Translations under genes and position numbers: made by a program | Shown here: positions 3,702 through 17,111 of the stretch, in pieces | Layout of the letters: the number at the start of each line of letters is the position of its first letter | Numbering within the stretch: the first letter of the stretch is position 1 | From: a virus | Direction: 5' to 3' (one strand) | IMG/VR virus record: IMGVR_UViG_3300030737_000007 | Location: 27,895-91,894 of that record | Length of the DNA: 64,000 nucleotides | The notes under the pieces: model-generated | Seen by the model: the letters and a program-made list of their open reading frames with translations, nothing else | What the model was told of the DNA's origin: nothing | Databases searched by the model: none

Positions 3702-3914
3702 TTAGGCGTGTTCGCGGTACGTGAACGGCTGGAGCAGCGTGTCGCCAGTGTAGAACGGAGAGAACGGGAACATCTCCGCTAGTTTATGCCTTGCTTCGCT
3801 TACACACGAGTCGCATACTTCTATTGTCTTTCCCCGTTCGATCTCTACCAGCTTATAGGCTATGTCATGCTTAGGGCATTGGGCGAGCATTGTATCCTTT
3901 GGGCGCGAGTCCAT
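3702..3914 (-). CDS. small Cys-containing hypothetical protein
   Basis: CPKH...CDSC; its ATG is supplied by a motif-A copy. Confidence 0.55.
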   Translation of the reverse strand: MDSRPKDTMLAQCPKHDIAYKLVEIERGKTIEVCDSCVSEARHKLAEMFPFSPFYTGDTLLQPFTYREHA

Positions 3915-4082: not shown

Positions 4083-4256
4083 TTAGCAGGCTGGTCCGTA
4101 TTCTCGGAACGTTGGGCGCGCCTCAATCTTTAGTCGAAACGCCAGCGATTCACTAGGCATGTACTCTGTGACGTTGTTCGCTTGCATCCAGCGCGCGAGC
4201 TCATCTAGGCTGTTGCAGTCTTGTGCGCGTTCAGGCAGTTTGCGCGCGTCTAGCAC
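4083..4256 (-). CDS. hypothetical protein
   Basis: GTG start overlapping the end of the upstream ORF. Confidence 0.45.
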   Translation of the reverse strand: MLDARKLPERAQDCNSLDELARWMQANNVTEYMPSESLAFRLKIEARPTFREYGPAC

Positions 4257-4932: not shown

Positions 4933-5346
4933 TTACTTTTGGGCTTGACGTTTGGCCTGATACTCGTCTAACATGTACCGCCTATCCGCTGGCATTTCCC
5001 ACCTGTTGAGGACGATAAACCCGAACTTGCCCATTCGATTGAGCGGCGGCTTATGCGTATGAATGAGATACGCCTCTGTCCACATCCTGGTTAGATCGTT
5101 CGGGATCTCGATACACGACACATGCGTCACTCCGTTGTCTATAAATTCCTGCATTCGGTTGTGGTACAGCAGCCTGTGTCGCGGCTGGACCGATGTTCCA
5201 ACATATAGCAGCCGGTTTGCCGCCCAAACTGTGTATACAGCGGGCCGTTTCGGAGCGGTACGGGCCGCCGCAAACCATTCATTCTCTTTGGGCGTGCCTG
5301 TCTTATATGGATAATTGGGTGGGAGCTGAAAATCGTCTGAATACAT
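4933..5346 (-). CDS. GIY-YIG nuclease family protein
   Basis: AVY...LLYVG.S...RHRL..H and E.YLI...KPPLN motifs. Confidence 0.8.
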   Translation of the reverse strand: MYSDDFQLPPNYPYKTGTPKENEWFAAARTAPKRPAVYTVWAANRLLYVGTSVQPRHRLLYHNRMQEFIDNGVTHVSCIEIPNDLTRMWTEAYLIHTHKPPLNRMGKFGFIVLNRWEMPADRRYMLDEYQAKRQAQK

Positions 5347-5386
5347 GCTCCCATTATATCACATGCAATTTATTTCAGAAAAACAC

Positions 5387-5415
5387 TTGACAATTTATTC
5401 GGTGGGGAATAATGT
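5387..5415 (+). promoter_or_regulatory. sigma70-type early promoter
   Basis: TTGACA-17 nt-TAATGT upstream of the first plus-strand gene. Confidence 0.55.
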
Positions 5416-5452
5416 GAGTTTGTTGGTTCAAAGCAAACGGAGGAAACACCCC

Positions 5453-5617
5453 ATGAAAGACGCACAACAGGCTTTCGAGGAAGCGATCGCAGCCGGTAGA
5501 CTGTCACTCAACCCAGCCGCCACCAACTATGTCGGGCATTACATGTACATGGGCCCGAACGCAGCCGGAACACTCGACACGTTCAAACATCGTCTTACCC
5601 GGCAGTACATCGCCTAA
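5453..5617 (+). CDS. hypothetical early protein
   Basis: GGAGG RBS; MKDAQQAFEEAIAAGRLS...YMYMG. Confidence 0.75.
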   Translation: MKDAQQAFEEAIAAGRLSLNPAATNYVGHYMYMGPNAAGTLDTFKHRLTRQYIA

Positions 5618-5649
5618 CCGAAACGTCTTTACAACCTGGGAGGTAGAAA

Positions 5650-5823
5650 GTGCAAACCCTAAAGAAACTAACACTTACACACGTATTGCTCGCCGTCATT
5701 GCTGTGATGCTCGGCCTAACCTATCACCGGCTGTTTCTCATGGATCAAGACATAGAGAACAACGTAGAGTTTTCACAACAGATTGCAACAGCGTTCGGCG
5801 CGCTTCCGAGCTCGGCGCGCTAG
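5650..5823 (+). CDS. small membrane protein
   Basis: GGAGG RBS then GTG; MQTLKKLTLTHVLLAVIAVMLGLTYHRL... with one transmembrane helix. Confidence 0.65.
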   Translation: MQTLKKLTLTHVLLAVIAVMLGLTYHRLFLMDQDIENNVEFSQQIATAFGALPSSAR

Positions 5824-5892
5824 TTCTCAGTTTGAGAATTCCAGATAATGGACATAACCGCGCGGCGCGTATCGTCGCAGAATGAGGAACTT

Positions 5893-6075
5893 ATGGAAGA
5901 TCCAAGGGACGAAATTTACCGCGAAATGGCTCGGGAAGAGTACGGCTCCGACGAATGCGAGATAGATGATAACGCAGTGGTCAGCTACGGCGAGGATGGG
6001 GCGTTCGTCGCGGCTTGGGTTTGGGTTCGCTACCCCGAGAAAAGCGAAACAGAGGACGAAGACGAAGCCGCCTGA
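5893..6075 (+). CDS. small acidic hypothetical protein
   Basis: GAGG RBS; ...GAFVAAWVWV...; stop codon lies inside the hammerhead core. Confidence 0.75.
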   Translation: MEDPRDEIYREMAREEYGSDECEIDDNAVVSYGEDGAFVAAWVWVRYPEKSETEDEDEAA

Positions 6076-6122
6076 TGAGCCGGTGAGATCCCGGCGAAAC
6101 GCTCGAACCTGGGCGTAGCGGT
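6067..6122 (+). ncRNA. type I hammerhead ribozyme
   Basis: Stem I GCCGC(6067-71)/GCGGT(6118-22); core CTGATGA 6072-78; stem II GCCGG/CCGGC; GAAA 6096-99; stem III CGCTC/GGGCG; GUA cleavage triplet 6115-17. Confidence 0.88.
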
Positions 6123-6129
6123 ACGCAAC

Positions 6130-6158
6130 TTGACAACCTAACCCCTAGCCTGTAGTAT
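6130..6158 (+). promoter_or_regulatory. sigma70-type promoter
   Basis: TTGACA-17 nt-TAGTAT. Confidence 0.75.
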
Positions 6159-6183
6159 GGTCTAAATCTGAAAGTGAGGCGCG

Positions 6184-6282
6184 ATGCCTAAGCTAACCCC
6201 AACTGAGCGCGGATACATGAAGACGGAGTTTATCGAGTTCGTTTGTCTTATGGCGCTCTTGATATTCATTCTTTGGATCTGA
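6184..6282 (+). CDS. 32-aa hydrophobic membrane peptide
   Basis: GAGG RBS; MPKLTPTERGYMKTEFIEFVCLMALLIFILWI*. Confidence 0.6.
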   Translation: MPKLTPTERGYMKTEFIEFVCLMALLIFILWI

Positions 6283-6308
6283 ACCGAGACCCGGCGGTAT
6301 CCGGGTTA

Positions 6309-6375
6309 GCTCCCCTACAACCTGGCCGCCAAGTGGCGGGGAGCGGGCAACGGGTTTATCCCGGCTAATAGGTTG
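6309..6375 (+). ncRNA. HDV-like (nested double pseudoknot) ribozyme 1
   Basis: P1 GCTCCCC/GGGGAGC; P2 CAACCTG/TAGGTTG; P3 GCC/GGC with 7-nt L3 GCCAAGT; P1.1 CC/GG; P4 CGGG/CCCG; J4/2 GCTAA with putative catalytic C6365. Confidence 0.85.
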
Positions 6376-6391
6376 AGAAAGAGAGGGTTAC

Positions 6392-6649
6392 ATGAGAAAA
6401 TATCCTGAACACGAAAAACAAGCGAAGGTGCTCGACCAGAGTCAAACAATTGGCTCGTTCCTAGATAACGGCGGTCTGGGTGATGGTGTAGTTTTAGCCA
6501 AATGGGACGAACGTCCGGGGAGGGATAATCTGTACCCCATCCACATGGATATCAACAAAATACTCGCCGCTTATTTTGAGATCGACCTCAACAAGATCGA
6601 AAAGGAAAAGCAGCAGATGCTGAAAGATCTCCGAACGGCTGCCGCATGA
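6392..6649 (+). CDS. hypothetical protein
   Basis: 85-aa ORF with RBS directly after the ribozyme. Confidence 0.75.
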   Translation: MRKYPEHEKQAKVLDQSQTIGSFLDNGGLGDGVVLAKWDERPGRDNLYPIHMDINKILAAYFEIDLNKIEKEKQQMLKDLRTAAA

Positions 6650-6822
6650 AACGCCATGATCTAATGCGCTACACCTACGGCGATATCTCTTACCTGGTAA
6701 TAGTCCAGCGGGCAACGCTCGACGAGTTCGGGACTGTACTAGTCAAGCGGGATGACGACGGGCACTATTTCTTCGCCACGCCCGAACGGTTGGAGGCTGT
6801 AATTGCTGATCCCAGCGTTTAG
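6646..6822 (+). CDS. hypothetical protein
   Basis: ATGA overlap; MKRHDLMRYTYGDISYLVIVQRATLDEFGTVLVKRDDDGHYFFATPERLEAVIADPSV*. Confidence 0.6.
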   Translation: MKRHDLMRYTYGDISYLVIVQRATLDEFGTVLVKRDDDGHYFFATPERLEAVIADPSV

Positions 6823-6999
6823 CCGCTCCCCCAGCCGTTTACCACCAAAGGCCGCGACCAGGTTTAGGGCCGCGATTCTACCCGCTGGACGCAAAACAGT
6901 AAGCCGCACGGCGCGAACGGATTGGACCTGTGTAGCCTGTATGAAGGGTAAACACGGGTGCGTAAGTCGCAAATGTAACTGTGTCCGGTGTAATCTAGC

Positions 7000-7042
7000 T
7001 TGACGGGCACGAAACCGCAGCGTAGTATTCCATTATTTGGAA
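7000..7042 (+). promoter_or_regulatory. sigma70-type promoter with a motif-A variant over the start site
   Basis: TTGACG-17 nt-TAGTAT followed by TTCCATTATTTGGAA (7028-7042). Confidence 0.7.
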
Positions 7043-7054
7043 AGAGAGGGCCAA

Positions 7055-7273
7055 ATGACTAAGAAGGACGCCGTAGCAACAGCAGTCAAGCGAGTAGACG
7101 AGACTGGGTTTACCTTCCTCGTTTTGCGCCGAGGATATGGCTATCGAGCGCAAATCTCTTCCTACCCAGTTGCGCGAGGCTGGAAGATCGCCGAACAGAT
7201 TGGTGTCGGCAACGTACAGAACTTCCGCGATGACCTACAGGAATTCAACCCGATTTGTGATGTCGTTTCTTAG
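7055..7273 (+). CDS. hypothetical protein
   Basis: GAGAGGG RBS, ATG at 7055. Confidence 0.7.
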   Translation: MTKKDAVATAVKRVDETGFTFLVLRRGYGYRAQISSYPVARGWKIAEQIGVGNVQNFRDDLQEFNPICDVVS

Positions 7274-7282
7274 GAGGAACCG

Positions 7283-7471
7283 ATGCCGAGATACAAAGTA
7301 GCTTTAGAAGTCGAGATCGAAGCCGAAAGCGCAGAGGCCGCGTTTGCTTACGTCCGGTCTTACGCCACGATCACAGACGAGTACGCGGCCCAACACGGTA
7401 CGCAATCGCAGTTTGAGTTCTATGTGTTGCCGCCAGAAGAGCTGGCCGAGGGAGAATTGGTAATTCAGTAA
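7283..7471 (+). CDS. hypothetical protein
   Basis: GGAGG RBS; EVEIEAESAEAA pattern common in phage small proteins. Confidence 0.7.
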   Translation: MPRYKVALEVEIEAESAEAAFAYVRSYATITDEYAAQHGTQSQFEFYVLPPEELAEGELVIQ

Positions 7472-7496
7472 CACGCCCGCCCGAGCGTATCGGGTA

Positions 7497-7546
7497 GTCC
7501 GCCACAAACCAGCCTCCACGCGGCGCGGACGGGTAAAGCTAATGGG
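7497..7546 (+). ncRNA. minimal HDV-like ribozyme 2 (P4-less)
   Basis: P1 GTCCGC/GCGGAC; P3 GCC/GGC with L3 TCCACGC (HDV has UCCUCGC); P1.1 CC/GG; J4/2 GCTAA; P2 only CCA/TGG (short). Confidence 0.7.
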
Positions 7547-7555
7547 CGAAAGGGA

Positions 7556-7798
7556 GTGTTTATGCAATGCAAGATATGCAACACCAGGACGGAAGCGCCT
7601 TACGCTGTAGCGACGAGAGTCAACAGCAAGGAGCTTTCCATCAAAAGGTATAACCGCACGGCGCAGCCGGTCAAAGGCTCGGTGTTACTATGTGGCGTGC
7701 GTTGCTCGGGCTCGGCGCTTGAACGGTTCCTACAGTCGGGCTCTCTTGAAATGCCAAACCAGCAAGGGAGGATTCCAGATAATGGACGAACAATTTGA
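7556..7798 (+). CDS. hypothetical Zn-finger-like protein
   Basis: CKIC...LCGVRC. Confidence 0.6.
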   Translation: MFMQCKICNTRTEAPYAVATRVNSKELSIKRYNRTAQPVKGSVLLCGVRCSGSALERFLQSGSLEMPNQQGRIPDNGRTI

Positions 7799-13019: not shown

Positions 13020-13742
13020 ATGGACGACAGAGATTTTGCAGACATGGAAACCGAGGACTTCGAGCGCGAACAGGACGATTTACGCGCCAAGCTCCCAGCA
13101 GATGCTAGCCTCTCAGAGCCGCAGGAGATTCTTGGAGAGTGCGATTACAGACTCGAAGGGCCGCACAAGAAAACTCCCGAGTGTAAGAACTGGAAGGCAG
13201 CCCCAACAGCAGCAGGGAGCGAGGAGCCGACGTCTCAGCCACGGTGCAGGAATTGCGGCCAGTTCAAAGCCATGCACGAAGGATGGAGATGGTGCGTTGG
13301 CGATCCGTGGGAGGATCATAAGAAATTCTTCATCCCCGGCGACGAACCCGAGGCCACGCAGGACTCTCCGAATAAGCCCCTAGACACACAAGAACTGCCG
13401 CCGCTGGGAATGACAATCATCACCCGAGAAGATGTAAGGCGAGCGCTGGGAATCCGTGAGCGCCAGTTACGCGAAGCCCGGGCTCGGCTCTCCCAGCTTG
13501 AGAAAGAGAACCAGTGGATCAGCGTGGAGCAGGAGTTGCCTACCGAGCGCGAGCAGGTAATGATCTCCACCGCTATCGCAGGAATAATGCTGTCCTCATG
13601 GTTTTGCTGGTTTCCAGAGAAGGGTGACCCGCCTTTATGGCACAACGTTCTTCGGGAATTTGGAGAAGTTACCCACTGGCGTCCTCTTCCATCCCCTCCC
13701 AGGGAGGCACTAAGCTCCGGGTCCGAAAGGAATTCCAGATAA
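13020..13742 (+). CDS. mosaic protein with C-terminal DUF551 domain
   Basis: QWISVEQELP...VTHWRPLPSPP. Confidence 0.75.
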   Translation: MDDRDFADMETEDFEREQDDLRAKLPADASLSEPQEILGECDYRLEGPHKKTPECKNWKAAPTAAGSEEPTSQPRCRNCGQFKAMHEGWRWCVGDPWEDHKKFFIPGDEPEATQDSPNKPLDTQELPPLGMTIITREDVRRALGIRERQLREARARLSQLEKENQWISVEQELPTEREQVMISTAIAGIMLSSWFCWFPEKGDPPLWHNVLREFGEVTHWRPLPSPPREALSSGSERNSR

Positions 13743-14976: not shown

Positions 14977-17111
14977 TGGAAACGGACTTTTACCTCGACT
15001 GGGAAGTAAAATCTGTTGTGGCCCTAGATGTTCACGGGCTCGACAGGTACGCTAAGGATCCTTCGACGGCGATCCTGATGGGGGCGTACGCCGAGGGAGA
15101 TCACGCACCCAAACTCTGGCAGCCTCACCTCGAACCCAAGATGCCCGCCGAGCTGCGTGAGGCGCTTGAAGACCCGATGGTCGCTATCCACGCATGGCAC
15201 AGCGCCTTTGAAAGGGTGATTTCCAAGAATGTGCTGAAGATCGACAAGCCCATCCCTGAGTGGAGATGTTCGATGTCCGCAGCGCGTTATTTGAGCTTGC
15301 CGGGAAGCCTGGACGACGCAGGCAAGATTCTGGGTCTGCGTGAAGACCAAGCCAAGATGAAGATCGGCGACAAGTTGATTCGGAAGTTTTGTATCCCGGA
15401 AGACCTTGGCGGAGAAACTACACTTTTCGGAATGAGCGAGCCCACTTTCCGATCCTGGGCGACGGACCCCGCCGAATGGGAATTATTTTGCGATTACTGC
15501 AAGCAGGATGTAGTTGCGGAGCGCGCCATCCTCAAAAAGATCCGCAAGTTCCCGTTGCCCGACTTCGAATGGGACACGTATTATCTCAACGAAATGGTCA
15601 ATGCTACTGGGTGGCCAGTGGACATGCGTCTCGTGACCGGGGCGCGTGAGATTGTCGTGCGGGAATTAGAACGCCTCGGTACCCGACTGCACGAACTCAC
15701 AAAATTAGACAATTCTAACTCCGTGGAACAGTTACTACCCTGGTTAAGGGATCGTGGGTACAACTTCTCGTCGCTGAATAAAACCCTCGTCGCGCGCGCG
15801 CTCGAAGACACCCAACTGTCCGAGGACGCCCGAGAGGTTCTGATCCTGCGCGGCCAGACTTCCAAGTCATCGGTACGGAAGTACACCAACATCGCGGACA
15901 TGGTGAGCTTGGACGGGCGGCTGCGGCACCAGTACACTTACTACGGCGCGGCGAGAACTGGGCGGAATGCTGCGCACGGTGTTAACGTCGGAAATCTCCC
16001 AAAACCAGTCAAGTCAGTCGAAAAGCACCTGGAGCGAGCGATCGAACTGGTGCGCGCCGGAGACTACGAGGGAGTCAAGCGAGAGTTTGACAAGCCTCTG
16101 GACGTGATTACCTCGACCGTCCGTGCGTCCTTTCGAGCGGAGGACGGGAGTAAGTTTATCGTTTCGGATCTCACGTCAATCGAGAACGTAGCGATCATGT
16201 TCCTGTCTCGGTGCGTCTCGGGGCTAAAGGTGTTTGAGGAGAAGCGTGATCCCTACCTGGACTTCGCCGTCCACTTCTTCAAACAGAGTTACGCCGACCT
16301 CTACGCCGAGTACAAGGCGGGGGACAAGTCGAAGCGTACGCTGTGTAAACCAGCCTCCCTCGGATCTGGCTTTGGCTTGGGCGCGGGCGAAGAGTTCCTA
16401 GACGCAGACGGTAACAAACAGTGGAGCGGTCTCCTGAAATATGCCCGAGACATGGGAGTAATCATGACCCAGGAAGAGGCCACCAAAGCCATCGCTGTGT
16501 TCCGGAAAGTTTATCCCGAGGTGCCGCAGATCTGGAAGGACCTAGAGCGCGCCGCCGTCCGGGCCATACGAAACCCCGGATCATTGGTAGGCGTGGGCGT
16601 GCCTCAGTCGGACAAAGATCGTGAGTGGTATCTATCTAGAGGGCGCGCCGTAGACTTAGAGCCGTTCCTATCCTTCCGGTGCCACGGTAAGAAGATACTG
16701 GAATTGATCCTGCCATCTGGGCGATCGCTGCATTACATTGACCCTCGCGTCGAAGAGGAACCAGCGGTTTGGGAAGGCAGATCGTACACCCGCCAGAAAA
16801 TCATGTACTACGGCAAGCAACAGAACACGTCCGCTTGGGGTTTGGTTCCCACATTCGGCGGCAAGTTGCTGGAAAACAGTGCCCAGAGCTGGGCCCGAGA
16901 CATCCTCATGGAGGGCATGAAGAACGCTGCTGCGATGGGATTCGAAGTTGTCGGATCGACGTATGACGAGATCATCGCGCTGGTGCCTAATGATTCCCCC
17001 CTTGGGGTGGACCAGTTATGCGAGTGCATGACGCGGAAACCCTCGTGGATGCCCGATGGCATACCTCTTGGCGCGGCTGGTTTTGAGACACAAGAATACC
17101 GAAAAGATTAG
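14976..17111 (+). CDS. polA: family A DNA polymerase with 3'-5' exonuclease domain
   Basis: Exo DWE; YYGAARTGR; motif A SDLTSIE; motif B RTLCKPASLGSGFG; motif C YDEI. Confidence 0.9.
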   Translation: METDFYLDWEVKSVVALDVHGLDRYAKDPSTAILMGAYAEGDHAPKLWQPHLEPKMPAELREALEDPMVAIHAWHSAFERVISKNVLKIDKPIPEWRCSMSAARYLSLPGSLDDAGKILGLREDQAKMKIGDKLIRKFCIPEDLGGETTLFGMSEPTFRSWATDPAEWELFCDYCKQDVVAERAILKKIRKFPLPDFEWDTYYLNEMVNATGWPVDMRLVTGAREIVVRELERLGTRLHELTKLDNSNSVEQLLPWLRDRGYNFSSLNKTLVARALEDTQLSEDAREVLILRGQTSKSSVRKYTNIADMVSLDGRLRHQYTYYGAARTGRNAAHGVNVGNLPKPVKSVEKHLERAIELVRAGDYEGVKREFDKPLDVITSTVRASFRAEDGSKFIVSDLTSIENVAIMFLSRCVSGLKVFEEKRDPYLDFAVHFFKQSYADLYAEYKAGDKSKRTLCKPASLGSGFGLGAGEEFLDADGNKQWSGLLKYARDMGVIMTQEEATKAIAVFRKVYPEVPQIWKDLERAAVRAIRNPGSLVGVGVPQSDKDREWYLSRGRAVDLEPFLSFRCHGKKILELILPSGRSLHYIDPRVEEEPAVWEGRSYTRQKIMYYGKQQNTSAWGLVPTFGGKLLENSAQSWARDILMEGMKNAAAMGFEVVGSTYDEIIALVPNDSPLGVDQLCECMTRKPSWMPDGIPLGAAGFETQEYRKD

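Follow-up and report, generated by a model that had tools for sequence, protein, structure and literature searches.

HDV-like ribozymes are abundant in phages, where a role has been proposed only for those linked to tRNAs. Two described ribozyme groups are among the known systems closest to the locus reported here. Ribozymes of the drz-Fpra type (Rfam RF02682, HDV-F-prausnitzii) form a nested double pseudoknot with G at +1, the core strings GGGCAAC and GGCUAA, and a short P4, and are found upstream of bacterial glmM. An upstream hairpin abutting the cleavage site is outside the description of this family, and a paper related to the F. prausnitzii ribozyme makes no mention of a leader or hairpin. 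The theta ribozymes of gut Caudoviricetes are phage-borne and lie in sense orientation, with a single base between a helix and the cut (Kienbeck et al. 2024, PMC10879173). They are P4-less, the same paper defining minimal drzs as those without P4, and the tRNA-associated ones cut within 5 nt of the tRNA 3' end. Of the hits in that study, 42% did not adjoin a tRNA and were said to "likely serve unknown biological functions" (Kienbeck et al. 2024, PMC10879173). Most of these non-tRNA hits are in sense with their neighbors, and the word hairpin is absent from the paper.

The locus studied here lies in a 64,000-nt stretch of DNA (the window) at the end of an IMG/VR phage record of 91.9 kb. The sequencing runs listed as containing this stretch are peat metagenomes, and none of them is an RNA run. 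The ribozyme at 6309-6375 resembles the drz-Fpra type in its nested double pseudoknot, its +1 base, both core strings, and its short P4. However, it sits between two small peat-phage genes rather than upstream of glmM, and its L3 starts with G. It also has an abutting hairpin, which, although not part of the family description, was found before RF02682 copies in Clostridia genomes as well. Like the theta ribozymes, it is carried by a tailed phage on the same strand as the flanking ORFs, with a predicted cut one base after a helix. Unlike them, it comes from peat, has no tRNA within 5 nt of the cut, and contains a P4, which the theta definition in the paper's text excludes. Because of the P4 and the missing tRNA, it is not a strict theta ribozyme. 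A second copy in the window, at 7497, is P4-less. The ribozyme sequences were not found in the supplementary files examined from Kienbeck et al. (2024). The window ribozyme belongs to the large non-tRNA group of HDV-like ribozymes.

The ribozyme at 6309-6375 and its setting

The features of the locus are collected in Table 1. The ribozyme has the same orientation as a block of + strand genes that includes an integrase, RecT, and a primase-helicase, and the stretch 6288-6391 is in the early, replication-side operon of a tailed peat phage. Upstream is a 32-aa ORF for which no family match was found; from its TGA stop it is 5 nt to the hairpin and 26 nt to the predicted cut. The module as a whole fills the entire 109-nt spacer (6283-6391) between this stop and gene 6392. 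The first-pass annotation of the window, made from the letters alone, had the ribozyme remaining as the 5' UTR of gene 6392. This agrees with the layout, in which the end of the ribozyme is followed by a ribosome-binding site (RBS) and the ATG at 6392. If the promoter-like site at 6130-6158 is used, the transcript would start at ~6165, roughly 145 nt upstream of the cut.

Table 1. Features of the ribozyme locus and of the second module, in window coordinates
Feature	Position	Strand	Basis
Candidate type I hammerhead, predicted cut after A6117	6067..6122	+	own descriptor
Promoter-like site TTGACA-17-TAGTAT	6130..6158	+	consensus scan, 10/12 matches
32-aa ORF, hydrophobic C-terminus	6184..6282	+	ORF list and translation
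Hairpin, stem 6288-6294 with 6301-6307, loop CGGUAU 6295-6300	6288..6307	+	minimum-energy folds
Predicted scissile bond, A6308 (-1) / G6309 (+1)	6308..6309	+	position 1 of Rfam and custom models
HDV-like ribozyme	6309..6375	+	RF02682 45.0 bits; custom model R1 58.6 bits; family covariation
P1, 7 Watson-Crick pairs, G6309 at +1	6309-6315 with 6338-6344	+	
P2, 7 pairs (6 Watson-Crick and G6324-U6369)	6318-6324 with 6369-6375	+	
P3, 3 pairs, GCC/GGC	6325-6327 with 6335-6337	+	
L3	6328-6334	+	
P1.1	C6329-G6346 and C6330-G6345	+	
P4, 4 pairs, 5-nt loop	6351-6354 with 6360-6363	+	
J4/2, GCUAA	6364-6368	+	
Putative catalytic cytosine C6365 in J4/2	6365	+	aligned to the family's invariant C
RBS of gene 6392, GAGAGGG	~6381..6387	+	sequence; begins 6 nt past the end of P2
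Gene 6392, 85 aa	6392..6649	+	phrog_21869, E 3e-5
Second hairpin, 6 pairs, loop GCGUA, then A7496 and second cut site	7479..7495	+	fold
Second HDV-like ribozyme, P4-less ("minimal")	7497..7551	+	R1 35.6 bits, E 3.6e-7

The complete nested double pseudoknot that had been described from the letters was recovered, with every listed helix in its place. A covariance-model search supported the assignment. A full-length match to RF02682 at 6309-6377 scores 45.0 bits, against a gathering cut-off of 44 (E 4.5e-5, for 64 kb, both strands, and 4227 families). No other Rfam family reaches its cut-off anywhere in the window or the 91.9-kb record. The RF02682 model cannot score pseudoknots, so P2 and P1.1 are outside this score. 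The 7-pair P2 is therefore independent, additional evidence for the fold.

Two positions were compared with the rest of the family. The +1 pair is G6309-C and not the G-U wobble of the HDV type; among family members, 17 have G-C at this pair and 14 have G-U. L3 begins in the window with G6328, at a position that helps build a metal site in HDV; the base there is U in 36 of 40 family members and G in four, the window included. This U is conserved but does not serve to define the class. This substitution could reduce the activity of the ribozyme. The three other natural copies with G at this position (L081, L082, and L083) have intact helices.

The family was collected by scanning viral contigs with a pattern in which the core strings were fixed and P1, P2, and P4 were free. 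This gave 69 loci, and all 72 matches (72/72) had a complementary 7-pair P1, most of them with a P2. A first loose descriptor had returned 155 hits in 92 kb and was uninformative. A custom covariance model, R1, was built from the matches of the viral-contig scan. In the window, it detects 6309-6377, which is a member of its training set, and 7497-7551, which is not. Elsewhere in the phage, R1 found nothing except a weak match of 10 bits (E 0.68) on the minus strand of contig L076 at 15167-15229, which is 15167-15229 of the phage record and upstream of the window. GGGCAAC and GGCUAAU are present there, P1 and P3 are poor, and the site is probably not a ribozyme. The metagenome scan described below found no closer relative of the window's own ribozyme.

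Covariation was assessed in an alignment of 45 hits (40 distinct), to which P2 and P1.1 were added as pseudoknots. In this alignment, 92.2% of the cells are paired, and changes on both sides occur in 21 of the 24 pairs. The covariation score was 0.615, compared to 0.08-0.13 with slid partners, and none of 500 shuffles reached any of the observed measures. All seven P1 pairs covary, and the P3 and P1.1 pairs are 100% paired throughout the family. Every P2 column shows double changes, with 77-95% paired; since P2 is outside the alignment model, its covariation support is unbiased. By these sequence criteria, 6309-6375 is confirmed as a genuine and well-formed member of the known HDV-like class, with drz-Fpra as the closest model.

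Contigs from four peat DNA runs covering 5900-7700 have zero letter differences within the hairpin or the ribozyme, so covariation cannot be read at the population level. Homologues of gene 6392 occur in five other viral contigs at 32-48% identity, and neither Rfam nor R1 detects an HDV-like ribozyme at these loci (L002-L006). This indicates that the gene does not need the ribozyme and that the ribozyme does not travel with the gene. A blastn search of window 5300-7500 against the phage collection gave no match, and the integrase as a query for relatives gave distant matches only.

Hairpins upstream of HDV-like ribozymes

The hairpin in front of the cut has seven pairs, with the closing pair G6288-U6307 enclosing the core ACCCGG-CGGUAU-CCGGGU at 6289-6306. 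The first-pass annotation had placed this hairpin and then TA before the cut. The hairpin is present, but only A6308 is unpaired, as U6307 pairs with G6288. The claim that no tRNA stands ahead of the ribozyme also held, since ARAGORN found no tRNA in the window, including the 120 nt that precede the ribozyme. In the tRNA-linked family members (L017, L050, and L071), the cut falls after the tRNA discriminator base. These copies therefore also have a helix and one base before the cut, and "hairpin in place of a tRNA" is a fair description of the window's arrangement. The emphasis on a GTA loop did not survive comparison. The loops of relatives include UUCG, CUUG, UCAC, and UGCG, and similar loops are shared by both window copies and the L091 copy at 1717. 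Because loop sequences vary and are often UUCG or CUUG, a GTA loop has no special standing. The frequent use of extra-stable tetraloops such as these, with no conserved sequence, points to selection for stability over recognition.

To count abutting hairpins, we required at least 5 pairs, a dG of -9 kcal/mol or lower, and an end no more than 1 nt before the position; all tallies are our own counts from the listed folds. At 4,200 random positions in the same loci, 3.7% had such a hairpin. An abutting hairpin was present in 14/14 non-tRNA families of the viral scan, in about 27 of the 38 hits of the model-expanded set, and in all 10 well-formed hits in bacterial genomes (10/10), mostly Clostridia. 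In an independent metagenome scan, 18 of 35 families had one and 3 more had a weak one, and the hairpin was absent or weak in about 40% of the families. The association is thus strong but not universal: the share of non-tRNA members with such a hairpin ranges between samples from about half to all. That the hairpin accompanies the ribozyme by more than chance is borne out by frequencies far above the 3.7% background and by its retention in relatives despite different stem sequences.

The 18 metagenome families with a hairpin were also examined for their gene context. An RBS and start codon lie within 60 nt in 7/18, compared to 13% of random positions, and the stop of a long ORF lies within 45 nt upstream in 11/18, compared to 32% of random positions. 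The unpaired base at -1 is most often A (11/18).

Several variations on this arrangement were seen. In the Clostridia contigs L095, L096, and L101, an A-run precedes the hairpin, and on the opposite strand the two would read as an intrinsic terminator (a stem and then a T-run). One stem may serve both strands in these contigs. A subgroup of well-formed metagenome ribozymes (L114, L147, and L171), with P1 ACCCCAC, has a run of 7-8 T directly before the cut and no hairpin. Arrays of 2-7 HDV-like ribozymes, all in one orientation and within 0.3-4 kb, occur in other phages (L039 7759-11549, L041 4626-8412, L085 519-2483, and L083 1212-1565). Most ribozymes in these arrays have their own preceding hairpin, making these ribozyme-punctuated transcripts.

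Recurrence of the module in related phages

Contig L053/L088 is colinear with 10.1-19.8 kb of the window at 40-60% amino-acid identity (tblastx), and a shared 711-aa protein is 58% identical. A profile of this protein recovered four related phages. With the exception of L089, which is a short fragment, all of them have HDV-like ribozymes in the corresponding early region. The L088 ribozyme is a positional orthologue of the window's, with a compensatory change from C-G to U-A in P1; its P2, P4, and hairpin sequences differ.

In this phage group there are seven modules: 6309 and 7497 in the window, 3704 in L088, 1717, 2725, and 4977 in L091, and 1531 in L090. All seven have the same layout. The stop of a long upstream ORF lies 16-26 nt before the cut, the hairpin ends 1-3 nt before the cut, and the ribozyme is followed at 8-15 nt by an RBS and start codon. 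The proteins flanking the seven modules are mutually unrelated. Given this constant layout, the unrelated flanks, and the ribozyme-free homologues of gene 6392, the module behaves as a portable intercistronic cassette. Literature searches, which covered few subscription journals, found no paper describing a hairpin-cut-ribozyme cassette. While the ribozyme class is known, the recurrent cassette arrangement appears to be undescribed.

The second module of the window differs in detail from the first. The 7497 copy has a P1 of six pairs, a P3 and L3 equal to the family consensus, and a P2 of only about three pairs. Rfam gives no match at 7497-7551. Downstream of the ribozyme are GGGAG and then an ATG at 7562. 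Similar P4-less copies are found in the relatives, at L091 1717 and 4977.

A candidate hammerhead lies upstream of the first module. It has the core elements CUGAUGA, GAAA, and GUA with stems of 5, 5, and 6 pairs, and the TGA stop of the upstream ORF is contained in its core. This is the only match to our descriptor across the phage and three relatives. Against the Rfam model Hammerhead_3, which is of type III, it scores 20.9 bits, with a cut-off of 48.5. If this candidate cuts, its cut and the one at 6309 would bracket a 191-nt RNA.

The window also contains 29 sites of the 13-nt motif TCCRRAWAATGGA (e.g. 5840, 10093, and 14968), where 0.03 are expected, and 16 sites of the motif are present in 22 kb of the related phage L088, including 3748-3760. 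In L088, L057/L080, and L091-2725, the ribozyme's P4 stem-loop is made from one copy of the motif. The ATG within the motif is the gene start at 5848, 10101, and 14976 of the window, and at 13740-13742 the TAA within the motif is a stop codon that overlaps the motif's ATG. In the window region 7028-7295, one peat-run contig has 38 other letters in place of 7029-7294, which holds a 78-aa gene (7037-7273). The left breakpoint of this replacement is at a copy of the genome-wide 13-nt motif, and the replacement looks like a gene-cassette polymorphism.

Proposed function and comparison with known systems

We propose that 6288-6391 is probably a self-contained, protein-independent cutting cassette for a polycistronic message. 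The proposal draws on what we observe, namely the fold, the family membership, the covariation, the recurrent layout, and the positional conservation in relatives. From these we infer that cleavage would occur in vivo and would affect the stability of either product. A polycistronic RNA would be transcribed first, after which the hairpin and then the HDV-like double pseudoknot would fold, and C6365 would catalyze cleavage between A6308 and G6309. In HDV-like ribozymes, the upstream product carries a 2',3'-cyclic phosphate after cleavage and G+1 has a 5'-OH, and activity is lost when the catalytic C is changed to U (Kienbeck et al. 2024, PMC10879173). The upstream RNA with the 32-aa ORF would then end in the 7-pair hairpin and one base carrying the cyclic phosphate. 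Its length would be about 145 nt if made from the promoter-like site, or 191 nt with an additional cut by the candidate hammerhead. The downstream message would begin with a 5'-OH on G6309, buried in P1, and keep the 67-nt ribozyme as a constant 5' UTR. The hairpin would probably also protect the folded ribozyme against interference by upstream sequence or by ribosomes that terminate at 6282. Overall, adjacent cistrons would become independent of each other in stability and translation, with no need for a host or phage nuclease.

The first-pass annotation had assigned a role to each of the new ends. A stem with one base would leave no single-stranded toehold for 3' exonucleases or poly(A) polymerase. 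In bacterial RNA decay, such an end with a blocked 3' terminus should resist both 3' exonucleases and polyadenylation. Protection of the new 3' end by the hairpin is therefore plausible. A capping role for the pseudoknot at the new 5' end is unsupported, and the glmS ribozyme is a counter-example: it likewise stays at the 5' end with a 5'-OH, and its product is degraded (PMC6765202). We also considered whether cleavage unmasks the RBS, and rejected this because the energies of duplexes between the sequence upstream of the hairpin and the RBS were no better than those of shuffled controls in six of the seven modules.

Other explanations of the same arrangement were weighed against the cutting cassette. 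The hairpin may serve an active ribozyme rather than the released end, keeping upstream sequence away from P1 and P2 and acting as a spacer against terminating ribosomes, with 3' protection as a by-product. The hairpin is mostly 0-1 nt from the cut, which is tighter than protection from exonucleases alone would need, and the tRNA-linked relatives have an equal geometry. Since the upstream stops are only 16-26 nt from the cut, ribosomes terminating there would extend into the hairpin and not into P1. In addition, upstream structure reportedly aids folding of the genomic HDV ribozyme. However, the nested fold of 6265-6400 shows no strong upstream competitor for P1, about 40% of metagenome members do without the hairpin, and such a role is compatible with the cutting cassette. 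We consider this explanation possible but unlikely. A further explanation is that the hairpin is a reduced tRNA, that is, an acceptor-stem mimic with a discriminator-like base in a degenerate or repurposed theta-type module, whose upstream product is handled by tRNA-end enzymes (CCA-adding or cyclic-phosphate repair). The cut right after the discriminator base in L017, L050, and L071, one group behind a decayed tRNA-Leu (L013 compared to L050), the seven pairs of the window hairpin, and the preference for A at -1 are consistent with this origin. It is nonetheless very doubtful, as stems range from 5 to 12 pairs with plain tetraloops and no T-loop motif, an ORF ending 5 nt before the hairpin leaves no room for a tRNA, the window has zero tRNAs, and the related phages all have the hairpin form. 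A more general version holds that the helix-plus-one-base geometry is itself functional, with the hairpin mimicking an acceptor stem so that the cut mRNA end is recognized by tRNA-end enzymes (a cyclic phosphodiesterase or repair enzyme, or a CCA-adding enzyme). We regard this as improbable. If true, it would mean phage messages with tRNA-like, enzymatically maintained 3' ends, and a single function for thousands of "orphan" non-tRNA HDV-like ribozymes.

Cleavage could instead lower the expression of gene 6392 and the genes downstream, if the 5'-OH product is a substrate for a host 5' exonuclease and a low downstream-to-upstream ratio is thereby fixed. There is a precedent in glmS, where the ribozyme is retained at the 5' end and the cleaved mRNA is degraded by cellular RNases (PMC6765202). 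In the window, however, G6309 would stay paired in P1 within a compact double pseudoknot after cleavage, and the genes downstream in the same orientation are replication genes. The ribozyme also lies immediately before a good RBS in 7/7 modules, a layout that looks built for expression. This makes lowered expression a very improbable purpose. Lastly, an Rfam score 1 bit over the cut-off and the unusual G6328 would be expected of an inactive remnant or a chance match with no present function. Against this, the 7-pair P2 and P1.1 are present though unscored by the model, the positional orthologue carries compensatory changes, the three other copies with G in L3 have intact helices, and the ribozyme region is identical in the contigs of four peat runs. 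We find a remnant or chance match hardly credible.

As a cutting cassette, the locus has its closest functional analogue in the RNase III sites of phage T7. In the T7 early polycistronic mRNA, host RNase III cuts within double-stranded stems between cistrons, leaving a hairpin at the upstream 3' end and separately stable cistrons. In the window, the predicted cut would be catalyzed by RNA one base 3' of the stem and would leave a 2',3'-cyclic phosphate and a 5'-OH. The resemblance is functional only, because T7-type sites are long imperfect duplexes cut in the stem, while the window has a 7-pair stem with the predicted cut outside it. RiboJ is an engineered hammerhead-type insulator with a hairpin downstream, which standardizes the 5' UTR of a gene whatever lies upstream. 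It shares with the window cassette the combination of a ribozyme and a hairpin, but the window part is natural and HDV-type, and its hairpin is upstream. At about 90 nt, the cassette may be a compact natural part for insulating genes in synthetic operons.

As predicted for the window ribozyme, the bacterial glmS ribozyme cuts at its own 5' edge, leaves a 5'-OH, and stays as the 5' UTR of the downstream gene (PMC6765202). In contrast, glmS needs GlcN6P and its cleavage leads to mRNA decay, and no ligand is indicated for the window ribozyme. According to a 2019 review (PMC6765202), bacterial ribozymes have been suggested to process polycistronic transcripts, although such a role is not defined. 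The cassette passes between gene pairs that are unrelated, and related phages retain it as its helices change in sequence. Our hypothesis is that orphan HDV-like ribozymes may act as protein-independent punctuation, dividing a polycistronic message into units with defined, structured ends, and that the hairpin-ribozyme cassette would be the self-contained counterpart of RNase III sites.
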